Assembly (NCBI RefSeq): GCF_018398935.1
Contig: NZ_CP074694.1
Location: 4,080,001 to 4,112,000 of the forward strand
DNA from: Telmatocola sphagniphila
GTDB lineage: Bacteria; Planctomycetota; Planctomycetia; Gemmatales; Gemmataceae
Direction: 5' to 3'
DNA: 32,000 nucleotides
Shown: positions 9,421-30,663 of the stretch, piece after piece
How the letters are laid out: each line of letters opens with the position of its first letter
How positions within the stretch are numbered: position 1 is the first letter of the stretch
The notes under the pieces: model-generated
Seen by the model: only the letters and a program-made list of their open reading frames with translations
Told to the model about the DNA's origin: nothing
Database searches by the model: none
Translations under genes and position numbers: made by a program

Positions 9421-9894
9421 ATGGTTCAGGTTAAAGTTTTCAATTCCCGGGGTGAGTTGGTTGGCCCCTTAAGCGTTCCCAAGATCACCAAAGCGGACGC
9501 CGAGTGGCAGGCTCAGCTGAGCCCGACCCAGTACACTATCGCACGCAATAAAGGAACAGAACGCCCCTTCTGCGGAACCCTTCTGGATAACAAAAAGAAG
9601 GGAATTTATTCCTGCGTCTGTTGCGGGCTTCCCCTGTTCGCCTCCACGGCCAAATTCAACTCCGGAACTGGTTGGCCTAGCTTTTTCATAGCTGTAGCAC
9701 CCGAAAATGTCGTAACGGCGAGCGATCGATCGCACGGCATGATCCGCGACGAGATTCTCTGTTCCCGCTGCGACTGCCATTTAGGACACGTCTTCGAGGA
9801 TGGTCCGGCCCCAACGGGATTGCGTTACTGCGTAAACTCGGAATCTCTGGTGTTCACAGATGAATCTGAAGTGGCGAAATTGGCCGAGATTTAG
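9421..9894 (+). CDS. msrB: Peptide-methionine (R)-S-oxide reductase MsrB
   Basis: SelR/MsrB motifs: GIYSCVCCGLPLFASTAKFNSGTGWPSFF, two CxxC zinc pairs (CVCC, CSRC), HLGHVFEDGP and the catalytic RYCVNS. Confidence 0.93.
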   Translation: MVQVKVFNSRGELVGPLSVPKITKADAEWQAQLSPTQYTIARNKGTERPFCGTLLDNKKKGIYSCVCCGLPLFASTAKFNSGTGWPSFFIAVAPENVVTASDRSHGMIRDEILCSRCDCHLGHVFEDGPAPTGLRYCVNSESLVFTDESEVAKLAEI

Positions 9895-12533: not shown

Positions 12534-15500
12534 TCAGCCCGCATTGGTTCCGGTAGCGGCGTAGTCCTCCATTTTTCGGGCTACAGCTAATGGAACGACT
12601 TTCTTCAGTTTCTTACCGCGACGAATCTCGGTCCAATCCTTCAGTATCTTTTCCGCCGATCTCGACCTGGTGAGCGAGTAGTAGTGATCCATCAGCGGAT
12701 GAATCCATTCGTAATCGACGTAATTGCAATCCACTAGAGCGACGCTCTTGGAATGCAGCTTGCCCGGCAGTTCATTCTTAGGATCGAAAATGAAGAGTTC
12801 TCCGCCGGTCATGCCCGACCCGACTTCATTCTCGATGGCCCCGAGGATGAGTACCTTTCCGCGCGTCATATATTCGCAGGCATACTTCCCGGCAGCCTCG
12901 GCGACGATGACAGCGCCGCTATTGCGGATGCCCAGACGGTGACCGGCCCGGCCGCCGATATAAATCCGGCCTCCCGTGCCCCCATAGCCGACGTTGTTCC
13001 CCGCCACGCTCTGAATCTGATTTCCGTAATCGGTTCGCTCATAATCGAGCGTGACCGTTACGGTACCACCCGAGATACCCTTCGCCACGCCGTCTTGAGC
13101 AAAACCGTTCAGCTTCAATTCCATCGAATTCAGGTTCCAAGCCCCGAAACTTTGGCCGGCCTCCCCTTCGAAGTTCACAGCGATGCGTCGATTGTTCGGC
13201 ATACCTTCCCGACCATAGAGCATCGCGATCCGGCCTGCCAGGGTAGCCCCTACACTCCGGTCGGAGTTGCGAATCCGGAACATCAGCTCGGACGACATGC
13301 AGGCATCCACAGCATCTTGAGCGGCCGCGACGATTTTCTCATTAAGCGATCGTTCGGGGCCGAAACCCACCCCCGTGCTGCATACCCCGCCCGGCTGAAG
13401 ATCCTGAGGATATTTTTCCAGGAGATTCGTCAGAGCCATGTCCGTGCGGACAAACCGGCTGACATCCACTAGCGTTGCACGACCCTTCATGGAAGGATTC
13501 TTAAGCAGCAGATCCCCTCGACCGACAATTTGCTCGAGCTTCGTGAAGCCCATATTGGCTAGGAGCTTTCGGACTTCTTCGGCCACACTGTACAGATAAG
13601 CCTTGGTGTGTTCCGGATGGCCGTGATATTTCTCCATCGAACCCGTGATTCCGGTCGGGCAATTGGGAATGTGGCAGCTCTTGCAGACAATACATCCCAC
13701 GCTGACCATCAAGGCCTGTCCGAAACTGAATTCGTCGGCGCCAAACAAGGCGTACTTAACGACGTCGTAGCCATTTTTGATACCGCCACCGACCCGAAGC
13801 GTGACAGCTTTTCTCAGGCCATTGACCACCAGAGCCTGATGCGCTTCCGCCAGTCCCATTTCGCTGGGTAGCCCAGCGTGCTCTTTCGATGAGATCATAG
13901 CAGCGCCGGTGCCGCCATCGATACCATCGATCTCGATGATGTCGGCCCCAGCCTTGGCAACTCCCACCGCAATCGTACCAATATTTTCGACAGCCACAAG
14001 CTTCACACTGACCGGCATGCCGGGTTTAATGGCTTTAAGATCGTAAATCAGTTGCGCCAGATCTTCGATGGAATAAATATCGTGGTGCGGTGGGGGACTG
14101 ATCAGGTCGTTACCCGGCTTGCCATAGCGAATTTCGGCAATTTCCTTGGTAACCTTTTTGCCCATCAGCTGGCCGCCTTCACCCGGCTTGGCCCCCTGAG
14201 CCATCTTGATCTGAAGTTCGTCGGCATTGATGAGGTATTCCGCATCCACTCCAAACCGGCCGGAAGCCACTTGACGGATTCTGCTGCGGAAACGGCTCTT
14301 GCGAAGCTCTCCCGCCAAGGTATATATCGAAGGATTTTGAATACGTTGCTGACGGATAGTATCCCAAAATTCGCCCCAGGCTCGTTCGGGCATGTCGTTG
14401 CGGAAGCGGGCTTCGCCCCCTTCACCGGAATTGCTGAGGCCATCCAGTTCGTTGAACGCCGCGGCCAGAGTCTGATGGCTGGCGCCGGTCAATGCTCCGT
14501 GGCTCATCGCAGCTCCACGGAACTTACGACGAATGATGTGGATCGCCGGTTCGACCTCTTCCAGCTTTACCGGCTGTCCGGATAGCTTGATGAGGAACAG
14601 ATCGCGGAGAACCGTAGGAGTCCGATTCTGGACCAACTCCGTGAATTTGACGTATTTATCGGCGACCCGTTTGGGGGCTTCCGGATCATTATCGGTCGGA
14701 ACGGCAGTGTAAACGCTTTCGCCGCCGCCCATTTCCGGTTCGGGATAGGCTTCCTTCACGGCATCCCGAAGTGCCATGCGTACCTTGGCATTGAAGGCTG
14801 TGTAGTCTAGGTGCTTGCCCAGAACCGACATTTTCTCGGCCTGCTCAACTCTCCAGGCAGCATCTTCCACCAGATGTTCCAACTGGATGCCGCCGATTCG
14901 ACTCGGGAATTCGCCGAGAAATTCCATAAGTTCCGAGCCAAACCCGACCGCCTCGAACAGCTGGGCGCCCCGATAACCTTCGATGGTAGTAATCCCCATC
15001 TTGGCGATGATCTTCTTGATGGAATCTTCGAGCGCGGCGAAGATATTCTCGAGGCACTCGCGGGCCGAGAGGGTCGATTCCTGCTTGGTATCGGCTTCCT
15101 TGAAAGTTAGACCATTCTGAATGATTCGCAGCATCAGATAGGGATGCACGGCGTCCGCGCCAAAAGCGATCAGGCAGCAAATATCGTGGCCTTCCTGAAC
15201 ATCGGCAGCCTGGACAACCAGAGAGCAGCGATCGCGCAAACCTTGCTTGCACAAATAGGTGTGAACGGCCCCTAACGCCAAGAGCGATGGGATCGGTACG
15301 ATCCCCATCTTGCTCGATTCCTTGTCGGACACGCAGAGCACCCGGTATCCTTCGTGCACGGCCTTTTCCGCGGCGGATTGAAGCGAGGTTAACGCTGTGC
15401 GTAAAGCCGCTTTGCCGCCGGACAGGTTGAAGGTGGCATCCAGAGTGGTGTAGGCCAGCACTTCATTTCGGCGAATTTCTTCGATGATCGCATCGGAAAC

Positions 15501-17303
15501 CACGGGCGAAGAGAGCTCCATCTGCTTGATCGGCAAAGCATCTCTTCCATCACTCGTCTTTTGCTGGCCATCTGCAAAACCAGCAGGCTTACCGAGGTAG
15601 GTCATCAGGCTCATGGCCCCCCCTTCTCGATAAGGATCGATCGGAGGATTGGTCACTTCCGCAAAGGTCTGCTGGAGGTACTTGAAGAGCGTCTGATGGT
15701 AGTTCGAGAAGATGGTCAGCACGCGATCGTGCCCCATCGAACTGAGAGGCTCCTTGCGGAGCTTGGCCATTTCCTTAACGAAAACCGCCCTCTGGAAATC
15801 CCAACCGCAGGCTTGCAAAAGGTGATCGAGCGTCCAGTTGCGATGGTTCAACTGCGCTTCCACGGTATCCGAGGTTTGGGCCGTGAAATCGAAGCCTTCG
15901 GGAATAATAATTTCGGCTTTGTTCAATTCGTGAAGATTGGGGTAACTGATCCCGGTCATCTTCCTGCGGGCTTCCAGTTCACCGCTCGACATTTCGGTGA
16001 CGACACGATCCAGAGTCTGGAAGTGGTCGAGCCGTTCGCCGGTCTGCGTATCGATGGCGATCATCTGTCCCGGTTGCAACTGGCCGCTGGCGACAATCGT
16101 GGCATTGTCGAGACCAAAGACTCCCGATTCCGAAGCGATGTACAACCAGCCGCGCTTATCCGACAGCCAACGCACCGGCCTCAAGCCCATTCGATCGACC
16201 AGAGCGACCAGATAACGACCATCGGAAGCGACTAATCCCGCCGGTCCATCCCAGGCCGAGAGCGAACCGTAGGCTCGACGGCAATAGGTGAATGTATCGA
16301 CCGCTTCCGGACCCCAGTAATCGGCTTCGGAATCCCAAACCGGCGGCAAACTCAAGCGCATCGCCCGGAGCAAAGACCAATCGCGTTCCAGCATCAGGTG
16401 TTCAACCCACTCGTCGAGCGAGCCGGAGTCCGACATCCGGGGAGTGAGTAAATCGTTACCGGGTAGTGCAGGGCTGAGGCCGCGTGCATAAGCATGCACG
16501 GCATTGCGATTGGTGCGAATCGTGTTGATTTCGCCATTATGACAGAGAATCCGGAACGGCTGGCCCAGCATCCAGTTCGGATAGGTATTGGTGGAATAGC
16601 GGCGATGGAAATAGGCGATGCCGGTTTCCATGTCGTCCCGTGAAAGATCGGGATAGAACGCTATCGCTTGATCGGACGTTAACAATCCTTTGTAGCTGAT
16701 CACTCGAGTGGATAGCGAGCAAACATATACCTGAAGCTTTTCTTCCTCAAAGCGCTGACGCAATTCCAGTCGACGGCGATAAAGCCACTTCTCGGCGGCG
16801 AAAGCATCTCCTTCGACGCGAATCAGCAATTGTTCGATACTGGAAGGGCAGGATTCCCGAGCTGTCTTCGGGATGGCATCCATGTGAACCGGAACCGGCC
16901 GCCAGCCGAACAGGTAGTAGGGACCGCTTCCCAGCACGTCGCGAATGATTTTCTTGGCGGCTTCGACTCGCTGCGGTTCGCGATCGAGAAAGAAGAACAC
17001 GCCGATAGCGAGTTTGTCTTCTTCCTTCAGAAAGCGGGCTTGGTCGAGTTTATGCCGACGAGCTTCTTCCTTGAAAAAGTTCTGAGGAATTTGCAGGGAG
17101 ACTCCGGCGCCATCGCCAGCTTCACCGCAGATACCACCACGATGTTCGACGGCTTTCAATGCAGTGAGCGTGCGTTTCAAGACTTCCGACGTGGGTTTGC
17201 CGTCTTTAGCAGCTACCCCGCCGATACCGCAGGCGTCTTTACCCACGTCGTCCTGATACAGCAATTCTCGTGACCGCACTAAGGCCAGGCCGGCTTCATT
17301 CAT
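12534..17303 (-). CDS. gltB: Glutamate synthase large subunit (GltB-type, about 1589 aa)
   Basis: The N-terminal Ntn amidotransferase domain has DACGIGGVA. The FMN/Fe-S domain has GCIVCKSCHIPNCPTGI. A C-terminal GXGXG beta-helix domain is present (GNNVGYGGTGGRIYIGGRAG...). The ATG at 17303 (MNEAGLALV) is preceded by GGAGAAGGA, so the 17342 start is probably too long. Confidence 0.93.
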   Translation of the reverse strand: MNEAGLALVRSRELLYQDDVGKDACGIGGVAAKDGKPTSEVLKRTLTALKAVEHRGGICGEAGDGAGVSLQIPQNFFKEEARRHKLDQARFLKEEDKLAIGVFFFLDREPQRVEAAKKIIRDVLGSGPYYLFGWRPVPVHMDAIPKTARESCPSSIEQLLIRVEGDAFAAEKWLYRRRLELRQRFEEEKLQVYVCSLSTRVISYKGLLTSDQAIAFYPDLSRDDMETGIAYFHRRYSTNTYPNWMLGQPFRILCHNGEINTIRTNRNAVHAYARGLSPALPGNDLLTPRMSDSGSLDEWVEHLMLERDWSLLRAMRLSLPPVWDSEADYWGPEAVDTFTYCRRAYGSLSAWDGPAGLVASDGRYLVALVDRMGLRPVRWLSDKRGWLYIASESGVFGLDNATIVASGQLQPGQMIAIDTQTGERLDHFQTLDRVVTEMSSGELEARRKMTGISYPNLHELNKAEIIIPEGFDFTAQTSDTVEAQLNHRNWTLDHLLQACGWDFQRAVFVKEMAKLRKEPLSSMGHDRVLTIFSNYHQTLFKYLQQTFAEVTNPPIDPYREGGAMSLMTYLGKPAGFADGQQKTSDGRDALPIKQMELSSPVVSDAIIEEIRRNEVLAYTTLDATFNLSGGKAALRTALTSLQSAAEKAVHEGYRVLCVSDKESSKMGIVPIPSLLALGAVHTYLCKQGLRDRCSLVVQAADVQEGHDICCLIAFGADAVHPYLMLRIIQNGLTFKEADTKQESTLSARECLENIFAALEDSIKKIIAKMGITTIEGYRGAQLFEAVGFGSELMEFLGEFPSRIGGIQLEHLVEDAAWRVEQAEKMSVLGKHLDYTAFNAKVRMALRDAVKEAYPEPEMGGGESVYTAVPTDNDPEAPKRVADKYVKFTELVQNRTPTVLRDLFLIKLSGQPVKLEEVEPAIHIIRRKFRGAAMSHGALTGASHQTLAAAFNELDGLSNSGEGGEARFRNDMPERAWGEFWDTIRQQRIQNPSIYTLAGELRKSRFRSRIRQVASGRFGVDAEYLINADELQIKMAQGAKPGEGGQLMGKKVTKEIAEIRYGKPGNDLISPPPHHDIYSIEDLAQLIYDLKAIKPGMPVSVKLVAVENIGTIAVGVAKAGADIIEIDGIDGGTGAAMISSKEHAGLPSEMGLAEAHQALVVNGLRKAVTLRVGGGIKNGYDVVKYALFGADEFSFGQALMVSVGCIVCKSCHIPNCPTGITGSMEKYHGHPEHTKAYLYSVAEEVRKLLANMGFTKLEQIVGRGDLLLKNPSMKGRATLVDVSRFVRTDMALTNLLEKYPQDLQPGGVCSTGVGFGPERSLNEKIVAAAQDAVDACMSSELMFRIRNSDRSVGATLAGRIAMLYGREGMPNNRRIAVNFEGEAGQSFGAWNLNSMELKLNGFAQDGVAKGISGGTVTVTLDYERTDYGNQIQSVAGNNVGYGGTGGRIYIGGRAGHRLGIRNSGAVIVAEAAGKYACEYMTRGKVLILGAIENEVGSGMTGGELFIFDPKNELPGKLHSKSVALVDCNYVDYEWIHPLMDHYYSLTRSRSAEKILKDWTEIRRGKKLKKVVPLAVARKMEDYAATGTNAG

Positions 17304-17511
17304 CGCAGTAGTCCTTCTCCCTTTCATGGAAGCTCGAAACAACGGAACAAGGAAAGATTGGTAATTTTACTAACTAGCCAAACAATGTGAAAGAGCGTCT
17401 AGGATTTTGGGGGTTCACTGGACAAGAAATCGATTCCAAAAAATAGGTGAGGGTTAAACCGAAATGGCTCCAGGGCATTAACAGGACGCTAAGTGCGAAA
17501 CGAGAGTTAAT

Positions 17512-18075
17512 TTACTTCATCCTCTCCCGGACCAGTTTGCTGACCGCTTTGAATTGCGGATGCTTGGCATCCTCCAGCCATTCAAACGCCGTGGTTTCCA
17601 CACTGGTGAGTATCGCACCGGCACTTTCCAGCCTGCGCAAAGCCACTTCGTGATCCAGCGAAAAACGGGATTGCACCCCATCCACGGGGATGAATACCAA
17701 ATAGTCCCGATCGATCAGATCCAGAACGGTTTGAAGCACACAAACGTGGCTTTCCATTCCGGTGACTATCACTTTAGGTCGCCCAAAGTGATTCAAAGTC
17801 GGCAGAAACTCGCCGGGTCCACAACAACTGAACTGCGTCTTGGCACTTATCGGACTCGCAATCCTAACCGCAAGAGTCGGATGGGTAGCTCCGAGGCCCT
17901 GAGGATATTGCTCGGTGGCCAGGATGGGCACTTCCAGAAGGCGGGCTACATCCAGAAGAAAGCCGACATCCCGCAGTAAATCACTGGCTTTCGGCATCGC
18001 GGCCAGAAGCTTATCCTGCACATCGATCACTAGCAGAACGGAGTCCTTCGAAGTGATTCGAGGGTTCTTTTTCAT
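17512..18075 (-). CDS. Isochorismatase-family cysteine hydrolase
   Basis: Family pattern: SVLLVIDVQDKLL (Asp), ATEQYPQGLG, and KVIVTGMESHVCVLQTVLDLIDRDY (catalytic Cys context). Confidence 0.85.
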   Translation of the reverse strand: MKKNPRITSKDSVLLVIDVQDKLLAAMPKASDLLRDVGFLLDVARLLEVPILATEQYPQGLGATHPTLAVRIASPISAKTQFSCCGPGEFLPTLNHFGRPKVIVTGMESHVCVLQTVLDLIDRDYLVFIPVDGVQSRFSLDHEVALRRLESAGAILTSVETTAFEWLEDAKHPQFKAVSKLVRERMK

Positions 18076-19437: not shown

Positions 19438-19879
19438 GGCGGTGACTCCTAAGGAGAGTTTGAGAGACCGATCTGATTCTACTTCGATTTTCTGCAATTA
19501 AGCAAGCGAAAGGATCGGGCTCGGCAATTATGCGCAAGTTTGAGCGAAAGCCCTAAGAGCAATTGCGGACACCCGCTTCCGCCGGAAATAGGCTGTTTCA
19601 GATTAACGTTCCACTCCCAAGGGTTCTCCGATTTAAGGGAGAAGTCGGAGGTACGGAGAGTTTCGAACTTGGGCTTTTCCGCAAAAATTTATCCCTGGAA
19701 CATATTCCGAATTGTCTGGATATTTAAGATTTTTTCATTCTGCAAGTCCATTTAAATTCAGACTTTATAGCAATTTATCCCAATCCAGACTACTAAACAG
19801 TATTGATTTACTTCTATTTCGATATATGTTGCTATTGAGATTCAATCTCATTAACAAAGGGCGTATTCGAGGTAGATTT

Positions 19880-20902
19880 ATGCGATTTAGTTTTCGACGA
19901 AAAAATGCTTTTACCCTCATTGAGCTTCTGGTGGTCATCGCCATCATCGCGTTACTGATCGGCCTGTTGCTGCCAGCAGTGCAGAAAGTCCGCGATGCGG
20001 CCAGCCGACTGAAGTGTCAAAATAATTTGAAGCAGATTGGGCTGGCGATGCATGGCTACATGGACGTGAATAACGGTCTGCCGCCCAACGGTCGATTTAC
20101 TTACAACGGTTCGACGGTTACCCAAACCTCCCCGTGGTCGGCTTTGTCGCGTATTCTGCCATTTATCGAACAGGAAAATCTTTCCAAGGCAATCGACTTC
20201 AACACAAACTACAGCACACAGCCGTTCGTCACTTCCAAACGCATCTCGACTTTCCTTTGCCCGAGTGAGATCAACGACAAAGGCAGTGGCACGGATGCCA
20301 CCTATGGTAATAAAAACTGGACGCTGAATTATGCGGTGAATTTAGGCACTTGGGGCGTGCTAACGAATAAGTCCAAGTCGATGCAAGGTACCGATGGCGC
20401 TTTTTCTCCGAATTTCTGCTACCGTCCTTCAGATTTCATTGATGGCATGAGTAACACTCTCGCCCTGGCCGAGGTGAAAGGGTACACGAATCGGGTGAAC
20501 GGCGCTTCCAATTCCACAACCTATAGTTCACCGCCCCCGCTGCCGAACAGTCCGGTCGATATTACCGCCCTTTCTCTCGCGGCCTTCGATGCGAGCAAAA
20601 ACACCCACGTCGAGTGGGTGGATGGCAAGGTACACGAAACAGGATTCACGAGTATCTTTACGCCGAACACCAAGGTCAATTACAGTGCGAACGGCCAAAT
20701 TTATGACGTGGATTACATTGCCGCCACGGAAGCCAATTTGGGCGACACTTATGCGGCGGTGACGTCTCGAAGTTACCACACTTCGGGTGTAAATGCCGTG
20801 CTAATGGATGGCTCAGTCCGCTTCCTTACCAACTCTATTGCGCTGCAAACCTGGCGCTCCCTCAGCACCCGGGCCAGGGGCGAAGTTCTGGGAGATTATT
20901 AA
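19880..20902 (+). CDS. DUF1559 protein with prepilin-type N-terminal cleavage/methylation domain
   Basis: The ATG at 19880 is preceded by GAGG. The N-terminus is [58 protein letters not shown]. The C-terminal block is SYHTSGVNAVLMDGSVRFLTNSI. Both are typical of planctomycetal DUF1559 proteins. Confidence 0.9.
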   Translation: MRFSFRRKNAFTLIELLVVIAIIALLIGLLLPAVQKVRDAASRLKCQNNLKQIGLAMHGYMDVNNGLPPNGRFTYNGSTVTQTSPWSALSRILPFIEQENLSKAIDFNTNYSTQPFVTSKRISTFLCPSEINDKGSGTDATYGNKNWTLNYAVNLGTWGVLTNKSKSMQGTDGAFSPNFCYRPSDFIDGMSNTLALAEVKGYTNRVNGASNSTTYSSPPPLPNSPVDITALSLAAFDASKNTHVEWVDGKVHETGFTSIFTPNTKVNYSANGQIYDVDYIAATEANLGDTYAAVTSRSYHTSGVNAVLMDGSVRFLTNSIALQTWRSLSTRARGEVLGDY

Positions 20903-21983: not shown

Positions 21984-22661
21984 ATGTGCTTTTCGCCAGA
22001 GGCCAGTTTTACAGTCGGTGCAGGATTGATCCCGGCCGGGCTCTTCTGTATTCGACAAGCAGTGAGAATCAATCCTCGGACGATTTATCTCGCCTGTATT
22101 CCCCTGGTATTCGGGATACAGCAAATTTGCGAAGGCTTCGTCTGGCAGAACATTACCGGTACTGGAGAAAACCTCCGACTGAGCTCGCTGGCATTCTTAT
22201 TTTTCGCGATCGCTTTCTGGCCTTTTTGGTTTCCGTTGGTGGCCGCGATCATGGAACCACCGTCCACAAAGAAATGGCTGTTCTGGGGCTTCGCAATTCT
22301 CAGTACGTTCTGGTTATTCGCCATGTATTTACCGCTGGTATTTGGGCCGTCCGAATTGCTCATCACGCGCGTCGAGCGGCATTCCATCCAGTATTACTAT
22401 CCCGATCTATGGATCTATCAGTATTTGCCGAAGACACCGTTACGGATCATTTACTTTCTCATGGTGGCTCTGCCGATGGCGTTTAGTTCGGAATCTCTGG
22501 GGAAAATCCCAGGTTTGGCGCTGGGAATATCCGCCGGGGTGACAATAGCCCTTTACGATTACGCTTTCGTTTCGGTGTGGTGTTTCTTCGCGGCCGTTTT
22601 GTCCTTTTATCTGGTGATCATGTTTTACCAGCTCCCTAATAAAGAGAAGCCGAGCTTATGA
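21984..22661 (+). CDS. Multi-pass membrane protein, DUF6629-like
   Basis: GGAGAAG lies upstream of the ATG. The N-terminus MCFSPEASFTVGAGLIPAGLFCI resembles my recollection of the DUF6629 N-terminus. There are about 6 hydrophobic segments. The overlapping ORF 21971-22486 in another frame is not hydrophobic or periodic and is rejected. Confidence 0.6.
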   Translation: MCFSPEASFTVGAGLIPAGLFCIRQAVRINPRTIYLACIPLVFGIQQICEGFVWQNITGTGENLRLSSLAFLFFAIAFWPFWFPLVAAIMEPPSTKKWLFWGFAILSTFWLFAMYLPLVFGPSELLITRVERHSIQYYYPDLWIYQYLPKTPLRIIYFLMVALPMAFSSESLGKIPGLALGISAGVTIALYDYAFVSVWCFFAAVLSFYLVIMFYQLPNKEKPSL

Positions 22662-23461
22662 GCATTCCCTATTTTCAGATCGACGCGTTTTCCGATCGAA
22701 TCTTCCACGGCAATCCTGCGGGAGTGTGTTTTCTGCCCGAGTGGCTTCCCGATTCCTTATTGCAAGCGATTGCCGCTGAAAATGGCTTGCCCGAAACGGC
22801 GTTCGTAGTACAGAAATCGGACCATTTTTTATTGCGATGGTTTACGCCGAATCTGGAGATGGATCTTTGCGGCCACGCCACTCTCGCCCCGGCCTACGTC
22901 CTTTTTCAGCACTATGGCTATCCAAAAGACAAGATCGCTTTTGAAACCCGCTCCGGAATATTGACTGTTCGCCGAAAGGCGGATTACTTCGAACTGGACT
23001 TCCCTTCCCGCCCCGCTGTTGCCTGCAATGCCCCGGCCTCACTCCTGGAAGGTTTGGGTATTACAGAGGCTCTATTCATTGGCAAAGCCCGGGACTATCT
23101 GGTCGTACTGCCGGATGAAAAGAGCGTGGCTGAGCTGAATCCGAATTTTCAGGAATTAAAAAAAATCGATACTCTGGGAATCATCACCACGGCTCCTGGA
23201 AAACAAGTCGATTTTGTATCGCGATTTTTCGCGCCGCGAGCCGGAGTCGATGAAGACCCCGTTACCGGCTCCGCTCACAGCACGCTGATTCCCTACTGGT
23301 CCACTCGTCTGGGGAAAACCGTACTAAAGGCGCGACAGATTTCAGCTCGAGGTGGGGAGCTGTTCTGTGAACTCCGGGGTGAACGCGTAGGAATAGGCGG
23401 TAGAGCCACAACCTATATGCAGGGATTTTTGAATATTGATGTATTTCAAGGACAAAAATAA
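22658..23461 (+). CDS. PhzF-family isomerase-like protein
   Basis: The sequence FQIDAFSDRIFHGNPAGVCFL, ETAFVV, LRWFTPNLEMDLCGHATLA, DPVTGSAHSTL matches PhzF/YddE. The start overlaps the upstream stop in ATGA. Confidence 0.9.
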   Translation: MSIPYFQIDAFSDRIFHGNPAGVCFLPEWLPDSLLQAIAAENGLPETAFVVQKSDHFLLRWFTPNLEMDLCGHATLAPAYVLFQHYGYPKDKIAFETRSGILTVRRKADYFELDFPSRPAVACNAPASLLEGLGITEALFIGKARDYLVVLPDEKSVAELNPNFQELKKIDTLGIITTAPGKQVDFVSRFFAPRAGVDEDPVTGSAHSTLIPYWSTRLGKTVLKARQISARGGELFCELRGERVGIGGRATTYMQGFLNIDVFQGQK

Positions 23462-23850: not shown

Positions 23851-24888
23851 ATGAAACGGTTTCTCTCCAACCGTCGGTCGGGTTTCACCCTGATCGAGCT
23901 TCTCGTCGTGATCGCAATTATTGCGATACTCATCGGCCTGTTGTTACCGGCCGTCCAAAAAGTCCGTGAAGCGGCTGCACGTATGAAATCTGCCAACAAT
24001 CTGAAGCAGATTGGTCTGGCACTTCACAATGCCCATGATTCTTTGGGTGCATTTCCTCCAGTTTCGGCTGGATGGTGGGCATCGTACTCGTCCGCACAGG
24101 GCGGCTATGGTGGACCTAACCCATACACCGGGCCGTATGCCCCCTTGGCCCAGCCTGGTGCCGTTTCCTACTACGAAATCACTTTCTTTTCTTGCTTGCT
24201 TCCTTACCTGGAGCAGGGGCCACTCTATGCTAAGAGCGGTCAGCCTTCGAACGTGTACAGTTGGGTGACCGGTCCAGCAGATATCGTGCTCGGTCAGAAA
24301 CTGAACGTTCTGTTGTCACCGACCGATTACAGTGTCGCCAACACCGTTACCGCCAATTGGAGTTGGGTGAATAGTAACAATCCAGTGCCCGTCGGCCTCA
24401 CTAGCTACGCACCGAGCTACCGCGTCTTCGCCAAGAATCCCAAAGCCTACGTTTGGAACATTTGGGACGGTAGCGGTGGCGGCCAACGAACGATTGCCGG
24501 AGTTAGCGATGGTTTGTCCAATACCATTTTTGTCGCGGAAAAGATGATGATTTGCGGTGCCAGCCAGCCCAACAACTTGAACGGTAATCCTTTCGTGTCC
24601 GCCTGGGGTACCGATCAGGATGTCAACAGCACGCCTTGGTTTGCCGGTATCTCTACCCAATGGCCAGTCAGTAACTGGAGTGACAACAACGGCTACTGGG
24701 AAGTTCCGCAGGCTCAACCCGCTCCCGCCAACTGCTCCTACTGGCGTCCAACGGCCCTGACGGCCAGCGGTTGCCAATGCCTATTGGGCGATGGTAGCGT
24801 TCGAAATGTTAGCACCAATATTTCTTACCAGACCTGGAGTGCCGCGATTACTCCCGATGGTGGAGAAATTCTGGGTTCCGATTGGTAA
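23851..24888 (+). CDS. DUF1559 protein with prepilin-type N-terminal cleavage/methylation domain (paralog of 19880-20902)
   Basis: AAGAGG lies upstream of the ATG. The N-terminus is [60 protein letters not shown]. The C-terminal block is [14 protein letters not shown]. Confidence 0.9.
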
Positions 24889-25492: not shown

Positions 25493-25536
25493 AAAAAACT
25501 GAAAGTCGCAACTCCCACTTGGGTAATTGCGACTTT
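25493..25536 (-). terminator. Rho-independent terminator closing the minus-strand ArsR-to-MoaD-like cluster (possibly bidirectional)
   Basis: A perfect 10-bp stem, AAAGTCGCAA (25502-25511) pairing with TTGCGACTTT (25527-25536). On the minus strand it lies 17 nt after the MoaD-like stop and is followed, 3 nt later, by T6 (the complement of 25493-25498). Confidence 0.6.
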
Positions 25537-25552
25537 CTTGCATTTAAAAACT

Positions 25553-25849
25553 TCATCCGCCAGCAATAGCTCCGAGAATCCAGAAAGGTTCTTTACCACT
25601 CAAAATGTCCGCGGGTAGCTTATACTCGAAAGGTTCGTGTGATATATCTTCCTCGCACGCAAAAAATCGCAACATGGGTCGACGGCGTTTAGTAACATGA
25701 TCGCGGATCGTCCCGAGTAAAACGGGATAGCGGGCTTCCAGTGCATTCAGAACGGAACCGATATCCCCGGCCTCATCGATTTCCAGGCTAATTTCCTCTC
25801 CGACGTTCGCCAGCGTTCTCAAGTGATAGGGCAGAATCACACGGATCAT
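25553..25849 (-). CDS. MoaD/ThiS-family beta-grasp (ubiquitin-like) protein with a C-terminal Gly-Gly
   Basis: A 98-aa protein, [24 protein letters not shown]...[21 protein letters not shown]...[16 protein letters not shown]-stop. The size, the N-terminal beta-strand pattern and the terminal GG fit sulfur-carrier / Ubl proteins. The start overlaps the upstream stop in ATGA. Confidence 0.72.
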
Positions 25850-26961
25850 AAGATCGTCTGTACCTCCACCGAGAGGACCGCGGGAAGATCCCGAACGATG
25901 GCGGTCCAGTTATCGCCTGAATCGGCCGAGACGTACACCTGCCCGCCTGTGGTGCCGAAGTAGACACCGCAGGAATCGAGGCTATCCACCGCCATGGCAT
26001 CTCGAAGAACGTTGACGTAGCAATTTTCTTGAGGAAGCCCTTGAGTCAAGGCTTCCCATTCATGACCGCCCGTCCTGCTGCGATAGACCTGCAACTTACC
26101 ATCCATGGGGTAATGTTCGGAATCGCTCTTGATGGGAACGATATAAATTGTGTTGGGTTCGTGAGCGTGCACGTCAATGACAAACCCGAAGTCTGTGGGT
26201 AGATTGCCGCTGACACGCGTCCAGTTATCGCCGGCATCATCGGATCGCATGATGTCCCAGTGTTTCTGCATGAACAGGACGTTGGGGCGTTTCGGGTTCA
26301 TGGCCACATGGTGCACGCAATGGCCAACTTCCGCCGTCGGATCGGGTATGTATTTGGAATGGAGTCCCTTGTTGATGGGCTTCCAACTCTGGCCGCCGTC
26401 ATCGGTCCGAAAAGCACCGGCGGCCGAGATGGCAATATAAATGCGCTGGCTATTGGATGGATCCAGCAAGATGGTGTGCAGACACATCCCTCCGGCCCCC
26501 GGCTGCCATTTTGGTCCGGTGCCGTGCTTGCGCAATCCCGACAGTTCTTCCCAGTTCTGCCCGCCATCGTTAGTAACGAATAGAGCGGCATCTTCCGCAC
26601 CGGCGAAAACCTTATTGGGATCGGTTAAGGAAGGCTCCAGATGCCAGATCCGCTTGAACTCCCAAGGATGTGGGGTGCCGTCGTACCACATATGGGTGCC
26701 GGGAATCCCATCGTACACGAATTTGTTTCCCACGGGATTCCAAGTCTTACCGCCATCGTCCGATCTCTGAATCATCTGGCCAAACCAGGAACTGGTCTGG
26801 GACGCATAGATCCGATCGGGATCGGCGGGCGAGCCCTTCATGTGGTAGATTTCCCAACCGCCGAAGTATGGGCCATTCACTTCCCATTTTTTGCGTTCGG
26901 CATCAGAGTTGAGGAGAAAAGCCCCTTTGCGGGTACCAACCAGTACGCGAACATGGCTCAT
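25846..26961 (-). CDS. BNR/Asp-box repeat beta-propeller protein (sialidase-fold / Ycf48-like); no signal peptide
   Basis: Six Asp-box (S/T-x-D-x-G-x-x-W) motifs are present: [48 protein letters not shown]. The N-terminus [20 protein letters not shown] is not a signal peptide. Confidence 0.88.
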
Positions 26962-27003
26962 AGTAGGACTCTGGAGAGGAAGAAATTTACAAAATTTTAT
27001 TTT

Positions 27004-27543
27004 TTATTTTTCGGCAAGTTCCTTGAGGTTCAACAGGCCATTTTCGAAATCGCGCCCCACCATTTTCTCCATGTTAATGAAAACACTCATCACTCGACCC
27101 ATGAACACCATGGGACCTTCCATTCGCCAAGTCATCACAGTCGAATGTTCCGCTTGGGGCTCGAGTTTGAATGTCGTCGTATTATGACTCGGGAATGGCT
27201 TGATGAAATCCAACTTGATGGAGACATATCGTTCCGGCTCCGCATCCAATATTTCCATGCGTCCCTGGCCCGCCTTCTTATTCCCGAGCCATTCGTAAAC
27301 CGCACCTTTTCCCTTCTCCGCCCCGCTAAAAGTGGCCTGCATTTCTGGATCCAGTTTTTCCCACGGCGACCAGCTCTTCCAGTGGTGAAAATCGCTAATG
27401 TACTCGTAAATTTTCGCGGGAGATGCTTGAATATTCTGGCTGCGCTCCACTACGAATTTTTTGGGCTTGGTCAGTGCGAGGCCGATTATCACCAGGAAGA
27501 AAGCGGCTAGAGCGATACCAACATAAATCAGAATCTCCAGCAT
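27004..27543 (-). CDS. Membrane-anchored SRPBCC (START / polyketide-cyclase-like) family protein
   Basis: GGGAG lies upstream of the ATG. The N-terminal TM helix is MLEILIYVGIALAAFFLVIIGLAL. The SRPBCC pattern follows: ASPAKIYEYISDFHHWKSWSPW...GAVYEWLGNKKAGQGRMEI. Confidence 0.8.
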   Translation of the reverse strand: MLEILIYVGIALAAFFLVIIGLALTKPKKFVVERSQNIQASPAKIYEYISDFHHWKSWSPWEKLDPEMQATFSGAEKGKGAVYEWLGNKKAGQGRMEILDAEPERYVSIKLDFIKPFPSHNTTTFKLEPQAEHSTVMTWRMEGPMVFMGRVMSVFINMEKMVGRDFENGLLNLKELAEK

Positions 27544-27590
27544 CGAAATCTCCCAAGGTGGTAAGGAAAAGCGCGACTGATAATATGCTT

Positions 27591-28466
27591 TTATGTCATC
27601 TTGGTCAATTCGGCATTAAGCCTGTCAAAATTCTGTTCATTTGCCGGGACTGCAATACTTCGCAATCGCTGACATTCCTCGAGAGTCTTGAAGGTTTGCC
27701 GGAAGGTCACTTTGGTTTTTCCATTCGACTCTTCAAAGTTAACCATTACTTGAAAATACGGCAGGGAGACATGATCGAATTCAATTTTTTCCGGTTCTAA
27801 AATATCGGTGAAAATAATGTGATTCTGGAAGTTCGCGCCGTTCGGGCCGTGCATGACGAATCGCCAATGCCCCCCTATTCGAAAATCGAATTCTTCAAAT
27901 GTATTCGTAAACCCGTTCGGCCCCCACCAGTGGATGATGTGATCCGGGTCTTTCCAAGCTTCGAAAACCAACTCGCGGGGAAAATCAAAAAATCTGCTGG
28001 ATATCAACTCTCGCCCGGTGGCGAGCACTCCGGAAAGATTTTCCAGGATCATACTCCAGCCTGCTTGAGCGCGATCCTTGAAATTGGCCCACTTCGGCGC
28101 AATCGGATGCGACACGGTCATTTTGCATCCTTCCGGCACGGCCTCGAATAAAACCGTGACAATGGTCGGCTCCGATTCCCGGTCCGTGGAAAACGAGAAC
28201 ACCAGCTTTCGGGGCCGATCTAGTTCCAGGTAGATCCCGAAATGTTCCGCCAGGGTTTCTCCACGCTTCTCGACAATAACCAGCTTACCGCCGGGACGAG
28301 GTTCGGTTTCCACCCGAACCATTTCTCCCTGCGGCGTAGCGAACAGCCATCTTCCCAGGGAACGGGGGTCGAGCCAGGCATCGTACACTTGATCGCAGGA
28401 AGCTTGAAAGATCCTGGAAACTTCCATCAGGGGCTGAACGGCATTCGGTTCATCTTTTTGAGGCAT
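27591..28466 (-). CDS. Tandem AHSA1-type SRPBCC domain protein (two Aha1-like / START-like domains)
   Basis: There are two copies of the AHSA1 pattern. The first is SRIFQASCDQVYDAWLDPRSLGRWL. The second is SRFFDFPRELVFEAWKDPDHIIHWWGPNGFTNT..FDFRIGGHWRFVMHGPNGANFQN. Confidence 0.85.
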   Translation of the reverse strand: MPQKDEPNAVQPLMEVSRIFQASCDQVYDAWLDPRSLGRWLFATPQGEMVRVETEPRPGGKLVIVEKRGETLAEHFGIYLELDRPRKLVFSFSTDRESEPTIVTVLFEAVPEGCKMTVSHPIAPKWANFKDRAQAGWSMILENLSGVLATGRELISSRFFDFPRELVFEAWKDPDHIIHWWGPNGFTNTFEEFDFRIGGHWRFVMHGPNGANFQNHIIFTDILEPEKIEFDHVSLPYFQVMVNFEESNGKTKVTFRQTFKTLEECQRLRSIAVPANEQNFDRLNAELTKMT

Positions 28467-28818
28467 TTTTTTTCTCTTTCTTGCGAGGATTCTTCTGATT
28501 TTGAAGATCCTTCAAATAGGCATCGAGTCGATCGAAGCTTTCTTCCCAGAATCGATGGTAATGTTCGATCCACTCGGCGGCACTCTTCAACGGAGCCGGT
28601 TCGAGTCGGCACGGTCGCGATTGAGCCTCACGCCCCCGACGAATCAGTCCCGCTTTTTCCAGAACTTTCAGATGTTTCGAAACGGCGGGTAGGGTGATTT
28701 CAAAAGGCTCCGCCAGTTCGTTGACGGAACACTCCCCGCTCGACAGCTTCCACAGAATCGCGCGACGCGTGGGATCGGCCAAAGCGGCGAAGACAGCACT
28801 CAAGGGATCGGCGGACAT
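28450..28818 (-). CDS. ArsR/SmtB-family winged-helix transcriptional regulator
   Basis: The sequence AVFAALADPTRRAILWKLSSGECSVNELAEPFEITLPAVSKHLKVLEKAGLIRRGREAQ is a canonical ArsR HTH. The ATG at 28818 is preferred over the TTG at 28824. The 3' end overlaps the next gene by 17 nt. Confidence 0.9.
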   Translation of the reverse strand: MSADPLSAVFAALADPTRRAILWKLSSGECSVNELAEPFEITLPAVSKHLKVLEKAGLIRRGREAQSRPCRLEPAPLKSAAEWIEHYHRFWEESFDRLDAYLKDLQNQKNPRKKEKKNASKR

Positions 28819-28824
28819 GCGCAA

Positions 28825-28856
28825 TTTACCACCAGGTTAATTAACCGATTGGTAAA
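28825..28856. promoter_or_regulatory. Operator-like nested palindrome immediately upstream of the ArsR gene
   Basis: The sequence is TTTACCAcCAGGTTAATTAACCgATTGGTAAA. A perfect 12-bp core palindrome, GGTTAATTAACC, is flanked by the 7-bp inverted arms TTTACCA and TGGTAAA. It lies in the divergent ArsR/amidase intergenic region. Confidence 0.35.
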
Positions 28857-28965
28857 TTAATAATCTGGAGATTCCGGTCAAGTCCGGGATCGCCCGGAAG
28901 CGTGAAGAATACCTACACTAAAGCGCAAGGCTCTCGTTTCCATTTATAATTTTTGAGGTTTATTT

Positions 28966-30663
28966 ATGAATTCAGAAATTGATCCCCCCTCCCTCACCCC
29001 AAGTCGTCGAAGTCTCTTGAAAATTTTGGGCGCGCTCGGAATTGGCTCGCTTCCATTTCAAAGATCGGTCGCCGCTCAAGCTCAACAATCCTCCACCATT
29101 ACCGAAGGGATGATTCAACAGGCCGAATGGATTTCCGGCATTAAACTCGATGAAGCTGCTCGGAAGTCCATCGTCCGAACTGTGAATGGTGAACTCCGCG
29201 CAATTGCCTCGATGCGAGGATTCGAGCTCACGAATGCCCATGCCCCGGCCCTGTCCTTCCAGCCGGAGCCTTGGAAAGTCCCCTCTGAAAAACCGAATCG
29301 CGGGACCGTCGAGATCGGCGAATCGAAGGGAATCAAAAAACCTGCGAGCGAGGAGGAACTGGCTTTTCTACCCGTCACAGCTTTGGGAGAACTGATTCGA
29401 ACGAAACAAGTCACGTCCCTCGAGTTGACCAAACTGTATCTGTCTCGTCTGAAAAAATACGACCCGGCCCTACTGTGTGTAGTCACACTCACCGAGGAGC
29501 TAGCCCTCAAACAGGCGGCCGAAGCCGACAAGGAAATCGCTGCCGGGAAATATCGCGGACCTCTTCACGGCATCCCCTGGGGAGCGAAGGATTTGATTTC
29601 CTACCCTGGCTACAAGACCACCTGGGGAGCCACGCCGTATAAGGAACAACTGCTGAAGACCAAAGCGACTGTGGCCCAACGACTCGACGACGCCGGAGCA
29701 GTGCTGGTGGCCAAATTGACGCTAGGAGCCCTGGCCATGGGGGACCAGTGGTTCGGCGGCATGACCCGCAATCCCTGGAACGTGGAGGTCGGCTCGAGTG
29801 GCTCCTCTGCGGGTTCCGCTTGCGCGGCCGTGGCTGGCTTGGTCGGCTTCGCAATTGGTACGGAAACACTTGGAAGCATCATTTCCCCGAGCACGCGATG
29901 CGGCGCGAGCGGTTTGCGTCCCACCTTCGGACGCGTTAGCCGGGCCGGCTGCATGGCACTCGCCTGGAGTATGGACAAGCTCGGTCCTATCGCACGTTCA
30001 CTGGAAGATTGCGCCTTGATTTTAGGGGTGATCCATGGCGCGGATGGTCTCGACAATTGTGCCGTCGATCGCCCTTTCAACTGGCCGGGTCGGAAAGATC
30101 TCAAGGGAATCAAGGTCGGTTATGCGGAAGGTGCGAAAGAGGTCAAAGATCGAACGGAATTGCAGGTTCTAAAAGAACTCGGCGTGGAATTGATTCCCCT
30201 TTCTTTACCGAACAAAGTGCCGATGGGCATTACCTCGATTATTCTCAATGCCGAATGTGCCTCGGCCTTTGATGATCTGACGCGCAAGGGCGTAACCGAA
30301 GGTTTAAACTCCTGGCCGGAGATTTTCCGCGGCGGTCAGTTCATCTCGGCAGTGGAATATCTGCGAGCCAATCGACTGCGAGCCGTGCTCATGGAAGAAA
30401 TGGCCAAGATCTTCGAAAAAGTGGACATGTACGTCGGTATTCCAGATCTCGGCATCACCAACTTGACCGGTCACCCGACGGCCGTGATGCCCAATGGGTT
30501 CCGAAAGATGAATGAGATCTCGACGCCTACGGCCATCACTTTCACAGGACGGCTGTATGGCGAAAGCGATCTGCTGGCAGTGGCGAGCGCATACCAAAAA
30601 GCGACCGGGCACCACCTGAAGCATCCACCAATGGATAAAGTGGTTGTGAAGGAAAAGAAGTAA
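28966..30663 (+). CDS. Amidase-signature (AS) family amidase with a twin-arginine signal peptide
   Basis: The TAT signal is SRRSLLKILGALGIGSLPFQRSVAAQA. The AS-family blocks are GPLHGIPWGAKDLI (Lys) and GSSGSSAGSACAAVAGLVGFAIGTETLGSIISPS (Ser-cisSer). Confidence 0.9.
   Translation: MNSEIDPPSLTPSRRSLLKILGALGIGSLPFQRSVAAQAQQSSTITEGMIQQAEWISGIKLDEAARKSIVRTVNGELRAIASMRGFELTNAHAPALSFQPEPWKVPSEKPNRGTVEIGESKGIKKPASEEELAFLPVTALGELIRTKQVTSLELTKLYLSRLKKYDPALLCVVTLTEELALKQAAEADKEIAAGKYRGPLHGIPWGAKDLISYPGYKTTWGATPYKEQLLKTKATVAQRLDDAGAVLVAKLTLGALAMGDQWFGGMTRNPWNVEVGSSGSSAGSACAAVAGLVGFAIGTETLGSIISPSTRCGASGLRPTFGRVSRAGCMALAWSMDKLGPIARSLEDCALILGVIHGADGLDNCAVDRPFNWPGRKDLKGIKVGYAEGAKEVKDRTELQVLKELGVELIPLSLPNKVPMGITSIILNAECASAFDDLTRKGVTEGLNSWPEIFRGGQFISAVEYLRANRLRAVLMEEMAKIFEKVDMYVGIPDLGITNLTGHPTAVMPNGFRKMNEISTPTAITFTGRLYGESDLLAVASAYQKATGHHLKHPPMDKVVVKEKK

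Follow-up and report, generated by a model that had tools for sequence, protein, structure and literature searches.

A conserved gene pair for an Asp-box β-propeller and a ThiS/MoaD-like Gly-Gly protein in Telmatocola sphagniphila suggests a sulfur-carrier system with a novel type of partner

Sulfur-carrier proteins of the β-grasp fold are the prokaryotic roots of ubiquitin signalling, and each known pair of carrier and partner (MoaD–MoaE, ThiS–ThiG, CysO–CysM, TtuB–TtuA and Urm1) stands for a distinct sulfur chemistry. Here, a gene pair is described in which a small ThiS/MoaD-type protein with a C-terminal Gly-Gly motif is encoded directly after a cytosolic Asp-box β-propeller, an acceptor with a wholly different fold. 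The pair lies in a 32-kb stretch of DNA from Telmatocola sphagniphila (Planctomycetota, Gemmataceae), referred to in the following as the window, where it closes a cluster of five genes that starts with an ArsR-type regulator, a double AHSA1 protein and a membrane-anchored SRPBCC protein. In the literature searched, including surveys of β-grasp gene neighbourhoods (PMC1779556, PMC1949818) and of Asp-box proteins (PMC2716378), an association of ThiS or MoaD with a propeller was not found. What is new here is a probable sulfur-carrier/ubiquitin-like system with a partner of a novel type, and the pair spans at least ten bacterial phyla and well over 1000 genomes and metagenome contigs of the dominant soil and peat phyla, among them Acidobacteriota, Planctomycetota, Verrucomicrobiota, Gemmatimonadota and Chloroflexota.

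The CysO–CysM system, which in Mycobacterium tuberculosis operates with MoeZ and Mec+, carries out thiocarboxylate-dependent cysteine synthesis, and its expression is tied to oxidative stress. As in this system, the carrier of the Telmatocola pair is a small β-grasp Gly-Gly protein whose gene is located next to that of the acceptor, while an E1-type activating enzyme (E1) with ThiF and rhodanese domains is usually encoded elsewhere; CysO itself was among the top fold matches. In contrast to CysO–CysM, the acceptor is an Asp-box β-propeller and not a pyridoxal phosphate enzyme, no JAMM protease gene is present, and the carrier is only marginally recognised by the Pfam ThiS profile. MoaD–MoaE and ThiS–ThiG share with the pair the 1:1 arrangement of carrier and enzyme genes and occasional carrier–enzyme fusions (PMC1779556), which are paralleled here by the fusion protein P0324 described below. 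In both systems the Gly-Gly tail enters the active site of the partner, and by analogy the same may hold for the propeller. The fold of the partner is unrelated, however, and molybdopterin or thiamine genes do not occur consistently near the pair. Urm1–Uba4, the archaeal SAMP–UbaA and TtuB of Thermus, all of them dual sulfur carriers and protein modifiers, resemble the pair in their β-grasp fold, their stress-related context and their rhodanese-domain E1, which is found beside the pair in three loci. Those systems do not possess a dedicated, translationally coupled propeller partner.

The Gly-Gly protein (98 residues, Table 1) had been recognised as a β-grasp protein in a first-pass annotation, and structure prediction bears this out. 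The AlphaFold2 (AF2) model showed a β-grasp fold with a predicted local distance difference test score (pLDDT) of 89 and a predicted template modelling score of 0.81. The top matches of a Foldseek search against the PDB were SAMP1, CysO, a MoaD-related protein, MoaD and Urm1 (probability 1.00, template modelling (TM) score 0.67-0.79), and the matches included the Ahp1–Urm1 complex. Structure prediction and profile–profile comparison were needed to place the family; PDB searches with the single sequence as well as with a profile returned no meaningful match for this protein. When the family was aligned by hhalign to the PF02597-positive partners of divergent propellers, a probability of 98.8% and an E-value of 4.7e-17 were obtained. 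The motif GAxAGG is invariant in 40 relatives, of which 37 end exactly at Gly-Gly, and the partners of divergent propellers end in PAVSGG, AISGG or ALSGG. A cysteine (C65) is invariant in the Gly-Gly proteins of the tight group, the closest relatives of the window pair, and is not conserved in the divergent partners. The ATGA overlap of the two genes suggests that propeller and Gly-Gly protein are translationally coupled. Ubiquitin-like anti-phage defence (Bil, CBASS Cap2 and similar) was considered and rejected: in PADLOC, genes 2-5 of the cluster had no match, and the ArsR protein matched only generic helix-turn-helix parts of the Csa3/CasR models.

Both the propeller and the Gly-Gly protein are 100% identical to T. 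sphagniphila proteins deposited at NCBI. The propeller had been described as a signal-less protein with six Asp-boxes. Six clear boxes were indeed found (residues 67, 130, 186, 240, 295 and 345), and to these a degenerate one at residue 19 and a total of seven blades have to be added. On reading of the sequence no signal peptide was present, and the first predicted β-strand begins at residue 3. The AF2 model (pLDDT 82) had its best PDB match in 3b7f (1.1e-67, 33% identity, TM score 0.84), a seven-bladed protein of the same family (Reut_B4987 of Cupriavidus pinatubonensis JMP134) that was deposited by structural genomics as 'glycosyl hydrolase, BNR repeat' and to which the Asp-box survey, with a classification by structure only, gives the entry 'function not known' (PMC2716378). 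3b7f belongs to a divergent subfamily; the genes of similarly divergent propellers of Ralstonia and Mitsuaria (~31% identical to the query) are directly preceded by a MoaD/ThiS gene. Further structural matches were single propellers of GH74 enzymes, DAIP, Ycf48 and sortilin. Ycf48/HCF136, DAIP and the Vps10 domain of sortilin share the Asp-box propeller architecture and a weak Pfam/NCBIfam similarity; they are extracytoplasmic binding or assembly factors, whereas the propeller of the window is cytosolic, ThiS-paired and comes from a non-phototroph.

Conserved residues outline a putative site in the propeller. Twelve His and four Cys are invariant among tight-group propellers, and across the broad family (36-77% identity) H162, C215, H217, H234, Q232, R320, N197 and D326 are nearly invariant outside the Asp-boxes. 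3b7f retains H162, H214, H217, H234 and H265, has an Asp at the position of C215 and misses several of the tight-group His. Within a blade, the Asp-box connects strands 3 and 4 (PMC2716378). When the predicted strands are read in this register, the nearly invariant residues would lie on the innermost strands of successive blades or shortly ahead of them, encircling the opening of the central channel. In propeller enzymes, this opening is the usual place of catalysis or metal binding. H162, C215, H217 and H234, in the tight group together with H40, H107, H265 and H267, form a probable metal or catalytic site.

The labels 'exo-alpha-sialidase' and 'PSII stability/assembly factor-like', under which members of the family are widely deposited, are not supported, because the protein is cytosolic, is not six-bladed, lacks a FRIP motif and stays below the cutoffs of the Ycf48 and F510_1955 models. 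That the propeller is nonetheless a true exo-alpha-sialidase or BNR glycoside hydrolase, to whose activity the small protein is unrelated, would agree with the source annotations ('exo-alpha-sialidase' or 'glycosyl hydrolase, BNR repeat'), with the structural likeness to GH74 enzymes (E ~1e-13) and with a weak match to the F510_1955 glycosylhydrolase family of NCBIfam. This match reached 75 bits against a cutoff of 175, however, no sialidase family was matched in Pfam or NCBIfam, and no FRIP/RIP motif was found on reading. Sialidases have six blades and GH74 enzymes two tandem propellers of together more than 700 residues (PMC2716378), whereas the window protein is a single seven-bladed propeller of 371 residues whose GH74 matches span one propeller at 13-18% identity. 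In addition, it is without a signal peptide, only a few of the examined neighbourhoods contain carbohydrate genes next to the pair, and a glycosidase would offer no explanation for the tight coupling to a ThiS-like gene. A glycosidase function is therefore very improbable. The Ycf48/HCF136 assignment fared no better, as NF010237 scored 28 bits against a cutoff of 326 for this cytosolic protein from a planctomycete host.

To see how the pair is kept, 160 loci were collected, namely the best 80 of at least 595 matches to the propeller in a library with one genome per GTDB species and 80 of at least 599 metagenome matches. Among the best 80 genome loci, which were retrieved via conserved peptides and ranked by similarity so that identity figures are to be read with this selection in mind, the propellers were 75-82% identical, and the hosts fell into ten phyla (Acidobacteriota, Planctomycetota, Verrucomicrobiota, Gemmatimonadota, Chloroflexota, Alphaproteobacteria, Binatota, Hydrogenedentota, Omnitrophota and Eisenbacteria). 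The propeller gene is followed by the Gly-Gly gene in 140 of the 144 loci with room for it, and the identical 4-nt ATGA overlap is kept in 83. With the same caveat of retrieval, the median amino acid identity of the propeller was 0.80 between phyla and 0.81 within phyla, while four-fold degenerate sites at conserved residues were identical in a fraction of only 0.42 (saturated) and the GC content at third codon positions (GC3) ranged from 0.64 to 0.89. Since synonymous sites are saturated and GC3 is widely spread, recent horizontal transfer was rejected as the source of the 80% identity; the propeller is under purifying selection that is unusually strong for a protein of unassigned function. 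A library clustered at 50% identity contained the tight group as one full-length representative (77%), followed by full-length relatives at 53%, 45% and 43% and many at 36-42%.

Variations of the pair were seen in some of these loci. In the Acidobacteriaceae loci L032, L050, L063, L064 and L074, ~600-880 nt separate the propeller from the Gly-Gly gene, and in L063 (11302-11760) this gap holds an extra gene for a protein of ~150 residues with a signal-peptide-like N-terminus. The same five loci and several other loci of Acidobacteriota and Verrucomicrobiota share an insertion of ~20-24 residues in the propeller (match of 1170-1182 vs 1110 nt). Long propellers (P0123-P0126, 407-457 residues) and a long Gly-Gly protein (P0011, 114 residues), all metagenome-derived, were rejected as fusions, as they contain internal tandem duplications of conserved segments; they are most likely assembly chimeras.

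In a census of neighbours, for which all open reading frames (ORFs) were clustered, ranked by the number of loci and cross-checked with Pfam, the surroundings of the pair were found to vary. An HxlR-type regulator, which always lies upstream (median distance 128 nt), occurs in 27 loci; 19 loci have a PhnB-like VOC protein, 13 have YCII and 8 have DoxX, and DinB, glyoxalase and GyrI-like proteins are scattered among the neighbours. A winged-helix repressor adjoins the pair in about one quarter of the loci with upstream sequence. ArsR was found in only four of the 160 loci (L003, L038, L106 and L099, in the last case downstream) and homologues of the window AHSA1 protein in two (L003 and L038), with a truncated remnant in L106. 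The first-pass annotation had treated the five genes as one module, and the exact five-gene order turned out to be specific to Telmatocola, while the linkage of propeller and Gly-Gly gene held. In place of a five-gene pathway, the picture is that of a core of two genes whose regulatory and accessory surroundings can be exchanged. In view of pairing in 140 of 144 loci against ArsR in four and AHSA1 in two of 160, the unit under selection is the propeller/Gly-Gly pair, set amid changing ligand-binding and detoxification genes and differing winged-helix repressors.

The pair persists when the propeller diverges, at 53% (L161), 45% (L162), 43% (L167) and 40% (L163) identity. Here the partners are clear PF02597 proteins ending in PAVSGG, and both gene orders occur; in L163 the ThiS gene lies upstream of the propeller and a CsoR-like regulator further up. 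At ~31% identity to the query, a 'MoaD/ThiS family protein' precedes an 'exo-alpha-sialidase' in Ralstonia RS639 and Mitsuaria sp. 7, and an unannotated Gly-Gly ORF was found at the equivalent position on the GMI1000 megaplasmid. Two fusions were also detected. In P0324 (L164:602-1966), on a single short read-archive contig, a ThiS domain ending in LPAVSGG is joined by an 8-residue linker to the propeller; this may be a genuine fusion, which would have to be cleaved at Gly-Gly, or the product of a lost stop codon. P0262 (L167:1050-3453) is a cytosolic Ser/Thr kinase–propeller fusion with 43% identity to the query, and a 93-residue ThiS-family gene ending in PAVSGG starts 8 nt after it, which suggests that the propeller/ThiS pair can serve as the input module of a signalling protein.

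Around the divergent pairs, several further genes were noted. The regulator of L163 (1544-1810) belongs to the CsoR/RcnR family (Trns_repr_metal), and ahpC-ahpF are located near the Mitsuaria pair (L172:188-2515). In Ralstonia, a metallo-β-lactamase (MBL)-fold hydrolase is encoded directly upstream of the ThiS gene (L173:2497-3456, L169:3448-4455), and a homologue with 58% identity lies ~5.7 kb from the pair in L060. After a propeller of 43% identity, the overlapping gene in L165 (1429-1581) is not ThiS; it encodes a P-loop-like N-terminus (VGAGGKKTLLYHL), is cut at the contig end and may be YqeC-like.

If the Gly-Gly protein is a carrier, an activating enzyme is required. The 32 kb had been noted to lack any E1, JAMM, MoaE, ThiG, CysM or rhodanese gene, and this agreed with Pfam searches of its remaining 20 large ORFs, in which no ThiF/E1, JAMM, MoaE, ThiG, CysM or rhodanese domain was detected. 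For the 160 loci, E1 genes were searched by tblastn with Escherichia coli MoeB and matches were checked by Pfam for the combination of ThiF and Rhodanese. Such a gene adjoins the pair in three loci, divergently in L048 (Omnitrophota) and L070 (Gemmatimonadota), and in L108 as the third gene of a tight propeller–Gly-Gly–E1 operon with a 4-nt gap. No other ThiF match occurred in the 2.09 Mb of retrieved loci, and on the assumption of one to three ThiF-family genes per ~5-Mb genome only ~0.2 would be expected in the immediate neighbourhoods. MoeZ serves both CysO and MoaD in trans in mycobacteria (PMC3227635). The window does lack an E1, but because ThiF+rhodanese genes adjoin the pair in three loci this is no real obstacle to carrier chemistry, and the E1 is probably supplied in trans in Telmatocola. 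In L083, 5 nt separate the Gly-Gly gene from the start of a gene (5254-6645) for an MBL domain with two rhodanese domains, an architecture that is typical of persulfide dioxygenase–rhodanese fusions; further downstream in L083 lies a gene for a CO-dehydrogenase-type flavoprotein subunit.

That propeller and Gly-Gly protein act together is very probable, presumably as a complex, and activation of the Gly-Gly protein at its C-terminus is rather probable; any particular role of the propeller is much less certain. Somewhat short of an even chance, we favour a module under stress control in which the conserved His/Cys site of the propeller receives sulfur from an E1-activated carrier. The Gly-Gly tail would be adenylated and thiocarboxylated in trans by an E1 of the MoeZ/Uba4 type with ThiF and rhodanese domains, encoded elsewhere in the genome, and would then dock at the entrance of the central channel by the conserved His and Cys residues, where the sulfur would be spent on some substrate. 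Expression would be controlled by small winged-helix repressors, by ArsR in Telmatocola and most often by HxlR elsewhere. Since the pair sits among SRPBCC, PhnB-like VOC, YCII, DoxX and DinB proteins, the context suggests that it responds to electrophile, redox or sulfur stress. We infer the thiocarboxylation, the inducing signal, and where the His/Cys site lies and what it does, from these comparisons. More tentatively still, the pair may represent an unrecognised multi-phylum branch of ThiS/MoaD in which the E1-activated carrier delivers its thiocarboxylate into a probable metal site of His and Cys, that is, a new class of sulfur-transfer or protein-persulfidation enzymes with EF-Tu-like conservation under electrophile-, redox- or ligand-sensing repressors.

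Several observations weigh against carrier chemistry at the propeller. The window Gly-Gly protein matched no family in Pfam (including ThiS, PF02597) or NCBIfam, and among the close relatives Pfam ThiS was reached in only 8 of 40, weakly, at E-values of 0.006-0.1. A few family members have one or two residues past the Gly-Gly and the motif is internal in P0324, so that carrier chemistry would need processing in these cases. The window holds no E1, JAMM or rhodanese gene and an E1 is adjacent in only 3 of 160 loci; some distant propellers (Streptomyces L168, Fuscovulum L170 and L166) have no ThiS gene beside them, and no propeller is known from the literature to accept a thiocarboxylate. The kinase fusion P0262 suggests a role of the propeller in binding or sensing rather than catalysis, and a sigma-70-like site ahead of the third gene of the cluster may allow genes 3-5 to be transcribed also independently of ArsR.

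The fold matches to SAMP1, Urm1 and the Ahp1–Urm1 complex would also suit a modifier of the Urm1/SAMP/TtuB type, which would be conjugated after E1 activation under oxidative or electrophile stress, instead of or besides donating sulfur, to target proteins, possibly the propeller itself or proteins recruited by it. By analogy with what is reported for Urm1, such a conjugation could couple to cysteine persulfidation. The E1s adjacent to the pair share the ThiF+rhodanese architecture with Uba4, which serves both roles (PMC9574740, PMC7527816), and the contexts look related to redox or electrophiles (an N-terminal Cys in HxlR regulators, and ahpCF close to the pair of Mitsuaria). The four invariant Cys of the tight-group propeller and the invariant C65 of the Gly-Gly protein are in line with this role, and a propeller is a typical protein-binding scaffold, with the kinase fusion suiting a role in recognition. 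Against this, no JAMM/MPN deconjugase was found in the neighbourhoods examined, C65 is not kept in the divergent partners, and the strict 1:1 pairing with translational coupling resembles MoaD–MoaE and CysO–CysM more than a modifier with many targets. A modifier is thus considered unlikely.

A third possibility is that the β-grasp protein assists the propeller non-covalently, as a subunit, regulator or chaperone, in a sensor or scaffold module that binds ligands or proteins, without activation of its C-terminus and with a Gly-Gly that is merely inherited. β-grasp subunits that are not activated, such as TmoB and YukD, are known (PMC1779556), and the closest propeller relatives with known function, Ycf48 and DAIP, bind rather than catalyse. 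The retention of an adjacent ThiS gene by the kinase–propeller fusion, which suggests a signalling input, the internal Gly-Gly of the ThiS–propeller fusion and the 157 of 160 neighbourhoods without an E1 are in line with this explanation. However, the C-terminal Gly-Gly is invariant from the tight group to the partners of propellers with 31% identity, a constancy that is difficult to account for if no chemistry takes place there. All three ThiF+rhodanese genes that were found adjoin the pair, the nearly invariant ring of His and Cys suggests a catalytic or metal site, and the fusion P0324, being known from a single read-archive contig, may be an error. Even a real fusion would have a parallel in the fused MoaX of M. 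tuberculosis, which becomes active by cleavage at its Gly-Gly. A purely non-covalent role is accordingly also rather improbable.

If sulfur transfer from the Gly-Gly protein to the propeller is correct, it would be the first function for the 3b7f family and for the many genes annotated as 'exo-alpha-sialidase' beside a 'MoaD/ThiS family protein'. Finding the reaction would correct a widespread mis-annotation, give meaning to the orphan structure 3b7f and might bring to light a novel thio-metabolite or a bacterial counterpart of stress-linked urmylation or persulfidation. As the tractable hosts Ralstonia and Cupriavidus carry members of the family, direct tests are feasible.

The five genes of the Telmatocola cluster are encoded in one direction on the minus strand. 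The junctions read from the sequence (-17, +47, +42 and -4 nt) reproduced those given in the first-pass annotation, and for four of the five proteins (ArsR, double AHSA1, SRPBCC and Asp-box/BNR) its domain calls agreed with Pfam and NCBIfam. The features of the locus are listed in Table 1.

Table 1. Features of the five-gene cluster and its control elements in the window (positions count from the first nucleotide of the window).
Feature	Position	Strand	Remarks
Intrinsic terminator	25493..25537	-	13-bp stem, 3-bp stem-loop cap, then AG + U6
ThiS/MoaD-type β-grasp protein, 98 aa	25553..25849	-	ends ...GAIAGG-stop; ATGA overlap with propeller gene
Cytosolic seven-bladed Asp-box β-propeller, 371 aa	25846..26961	-	BNR/Sortilin-Vps10 Pfam matches; AF2 model
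N-terminally membrane-anchored SRPBCC (Polyketide_cyc2), 179 aa	27004..27543	-	PF10604 1.4e-17
Possible internal sigma-70-like promoter TTGACC-17-TATTAT	27580..27608	-	10/12 consensus matches; before membrane-anchored SRPBCC gene
Cytosolic protein with two AHSA1/SRPBCC domains, 291 aa	27591..28466	-	PF08327 in two stretches, 156 bits
ArsR/SmtB-family winged-helix regulator, 122 aa	28450..28818	-	HTH_20 1.6e-15, HTH_5 1.5e-14
Operator-like palindrome	28823..28858	.	two TTTACC-N4-GGTTAA units sharing central TTAA; ends 5 nt before ArsR ATG
Promoter-like region of ArsR operon	28853..28881	-	-35-like TTGACC 28881-28876; weak -10-like TAATTT/AATTTA overlapping operator

The first gene encodes a genuine member of the ArsR/SmtB family (NF033788, 88.2 bits vs cutoff 55; HTH_5, 54 bits vs 22), for which ATG is the likely start, as the orthologues in L038 and L003 start alike. 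Metal or metalloid sensing through an α3 CxC or α5 His/Asp/Glu motif is not indicated, since all equivalog models for metal and sulfite sensors stayed far under their cutoffs; on reading, no ELCVCDL-type motif was present, and the only Cys are two isolated ones (SGECSV, SRPCRL). The operator-like palindrome reported directly upstream of this gene is real and consists of an 18+18 nt inverted repeat with 83% complementarity. Its TTTACC-N4-GGTTAA core is kept in L003, a Planctomycetaceae metagenome-assembled genome (MAG), and L038, a Hydrogenedentota MAG, and a related AACC-N4-GGTT palindrome precedes the ArsR gene of the metagenome contig L106. In an alignment of the window, L003 and L038, TTGAC and TA(T/A)TTTACC are invariant upstream of ArsR, the latter as part of an invariant stretch TA(T/A)TTTACC-N4-GGTTAA(T/A)TA that covers the -10 position and extends toward the start codon; we count the promoter/operator as conserved in three phyla. 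The region 28853-28881 presumably acts as the promoter, although the consensus scanner gave no call there, and the layout would be that of an autoregulated repressor that occludes its own promoter.

Genes 2 and 3 both belong to the SRPBCC superfamily by profile (for gene 3, PF10604 with 64.8 bits vs cutoff 27.4), and gene 3 has a hydrophobic N-terminus (MLEILIYVGIALAAFFLVIIGLAL). Like ArsR–AHSA1/SRPBCC modules of soil bacteria, the cluster contains an ArsR gene without metal motifs that overlaps an AHSA1 gene (by 17 nt) behind a palindromic promoter operator. This ArsR–SRPBCC part is ordinary; unlike those modules, in the window, L003, L038 and L106 it runs on into the propeller/Gly-Gly pair.

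A single ArsR-headed transcription unit had been proposed, and the sequence is compatible with it. The hairpin and T-run after the last gene form a strong terminator (hairpin 25501-25537, U6 25493-25498; -26.7 kcal/mol, z = -6.6, equalled by 0 of 200 shuffles), and the 47-nt and 42-nt gaps, said to be free of hairpins, held no structure beyond that of shuffled sequence (z = +0.3 and -0.3). A sigma-70-like site that the first-pass annotation did not mention spans the end of gene 2 and ends inside the 47-nt gap. Because two such sites were observed in the region against 3.4 expected by chance, it is weak evidence for an internal promoter; such a promoter could serve genes 3-5 and would fit the loci in which SRPBCC, propeller and Gly-Gly genes occur without ArsR. 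Most likely the five genes are co-transcribed as one unit under repression by ArsR, and a second promoter may lie ahead of gene 3.

The same site bears on the possibility that the five genes have no joint function, the pair having come to lie beside a generic ArsR–SRPBCC assortment, with genes 3-5 or 4-5 under a promoter of their own. SRPBCC, VOC, YCII, DoxX and DinB genes loosely co-occur in many soil-bacterial genomes; most of the 160 loci lack ArsR and AHSA1, and the flanks are very variable. On the other hand, orthologues of the membrane-anchored SRPBCC protein (39-53% identity) occur in 10 of the 160 loci, from several phyla, always directly upstream of the propeller and on the same strand. 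ArsR-headed clusters that reach the pair recur with other internal orders in L003, L038 and L106, so that the linkage of ArsR/SRPBCC genes to the pair is not a one-off accident. Together with the gaps free of terminator-like structure, the one strong terminator after gene 5 and the winged-helix repressors beside the pair in the quarter of loci mentioned above, this makes a chance juxtaposition of two unrelated pairs, which the first-pass annotation had named as the case that would overturn its view, quite improbable.

Divergently from ArsR, with 148 nt between the two start codons and the operator at the ArsR-proximal end, lies an amidase-family gene (565 residues, window 28966-30663, plus strand) with a twin-arginine-like signal (SRRSLLKILGALGIGSL); its co-regulation by the ArsR operator is possible. 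Elsewhere in the window, two DUF1559 proteins with an N-terminal methylation motif are encoded on the plus strand (19712-20902 and 23851-24888), a kind typical of planctomycetes. These, a PhzF-like gene (22658-23461), an isochorismatase gene (17512-18075), the gene for the large subunit of glutamate synthase (12534-17342) and MsrB (9421-9894) have no obvious connection to the five-gene cluster.

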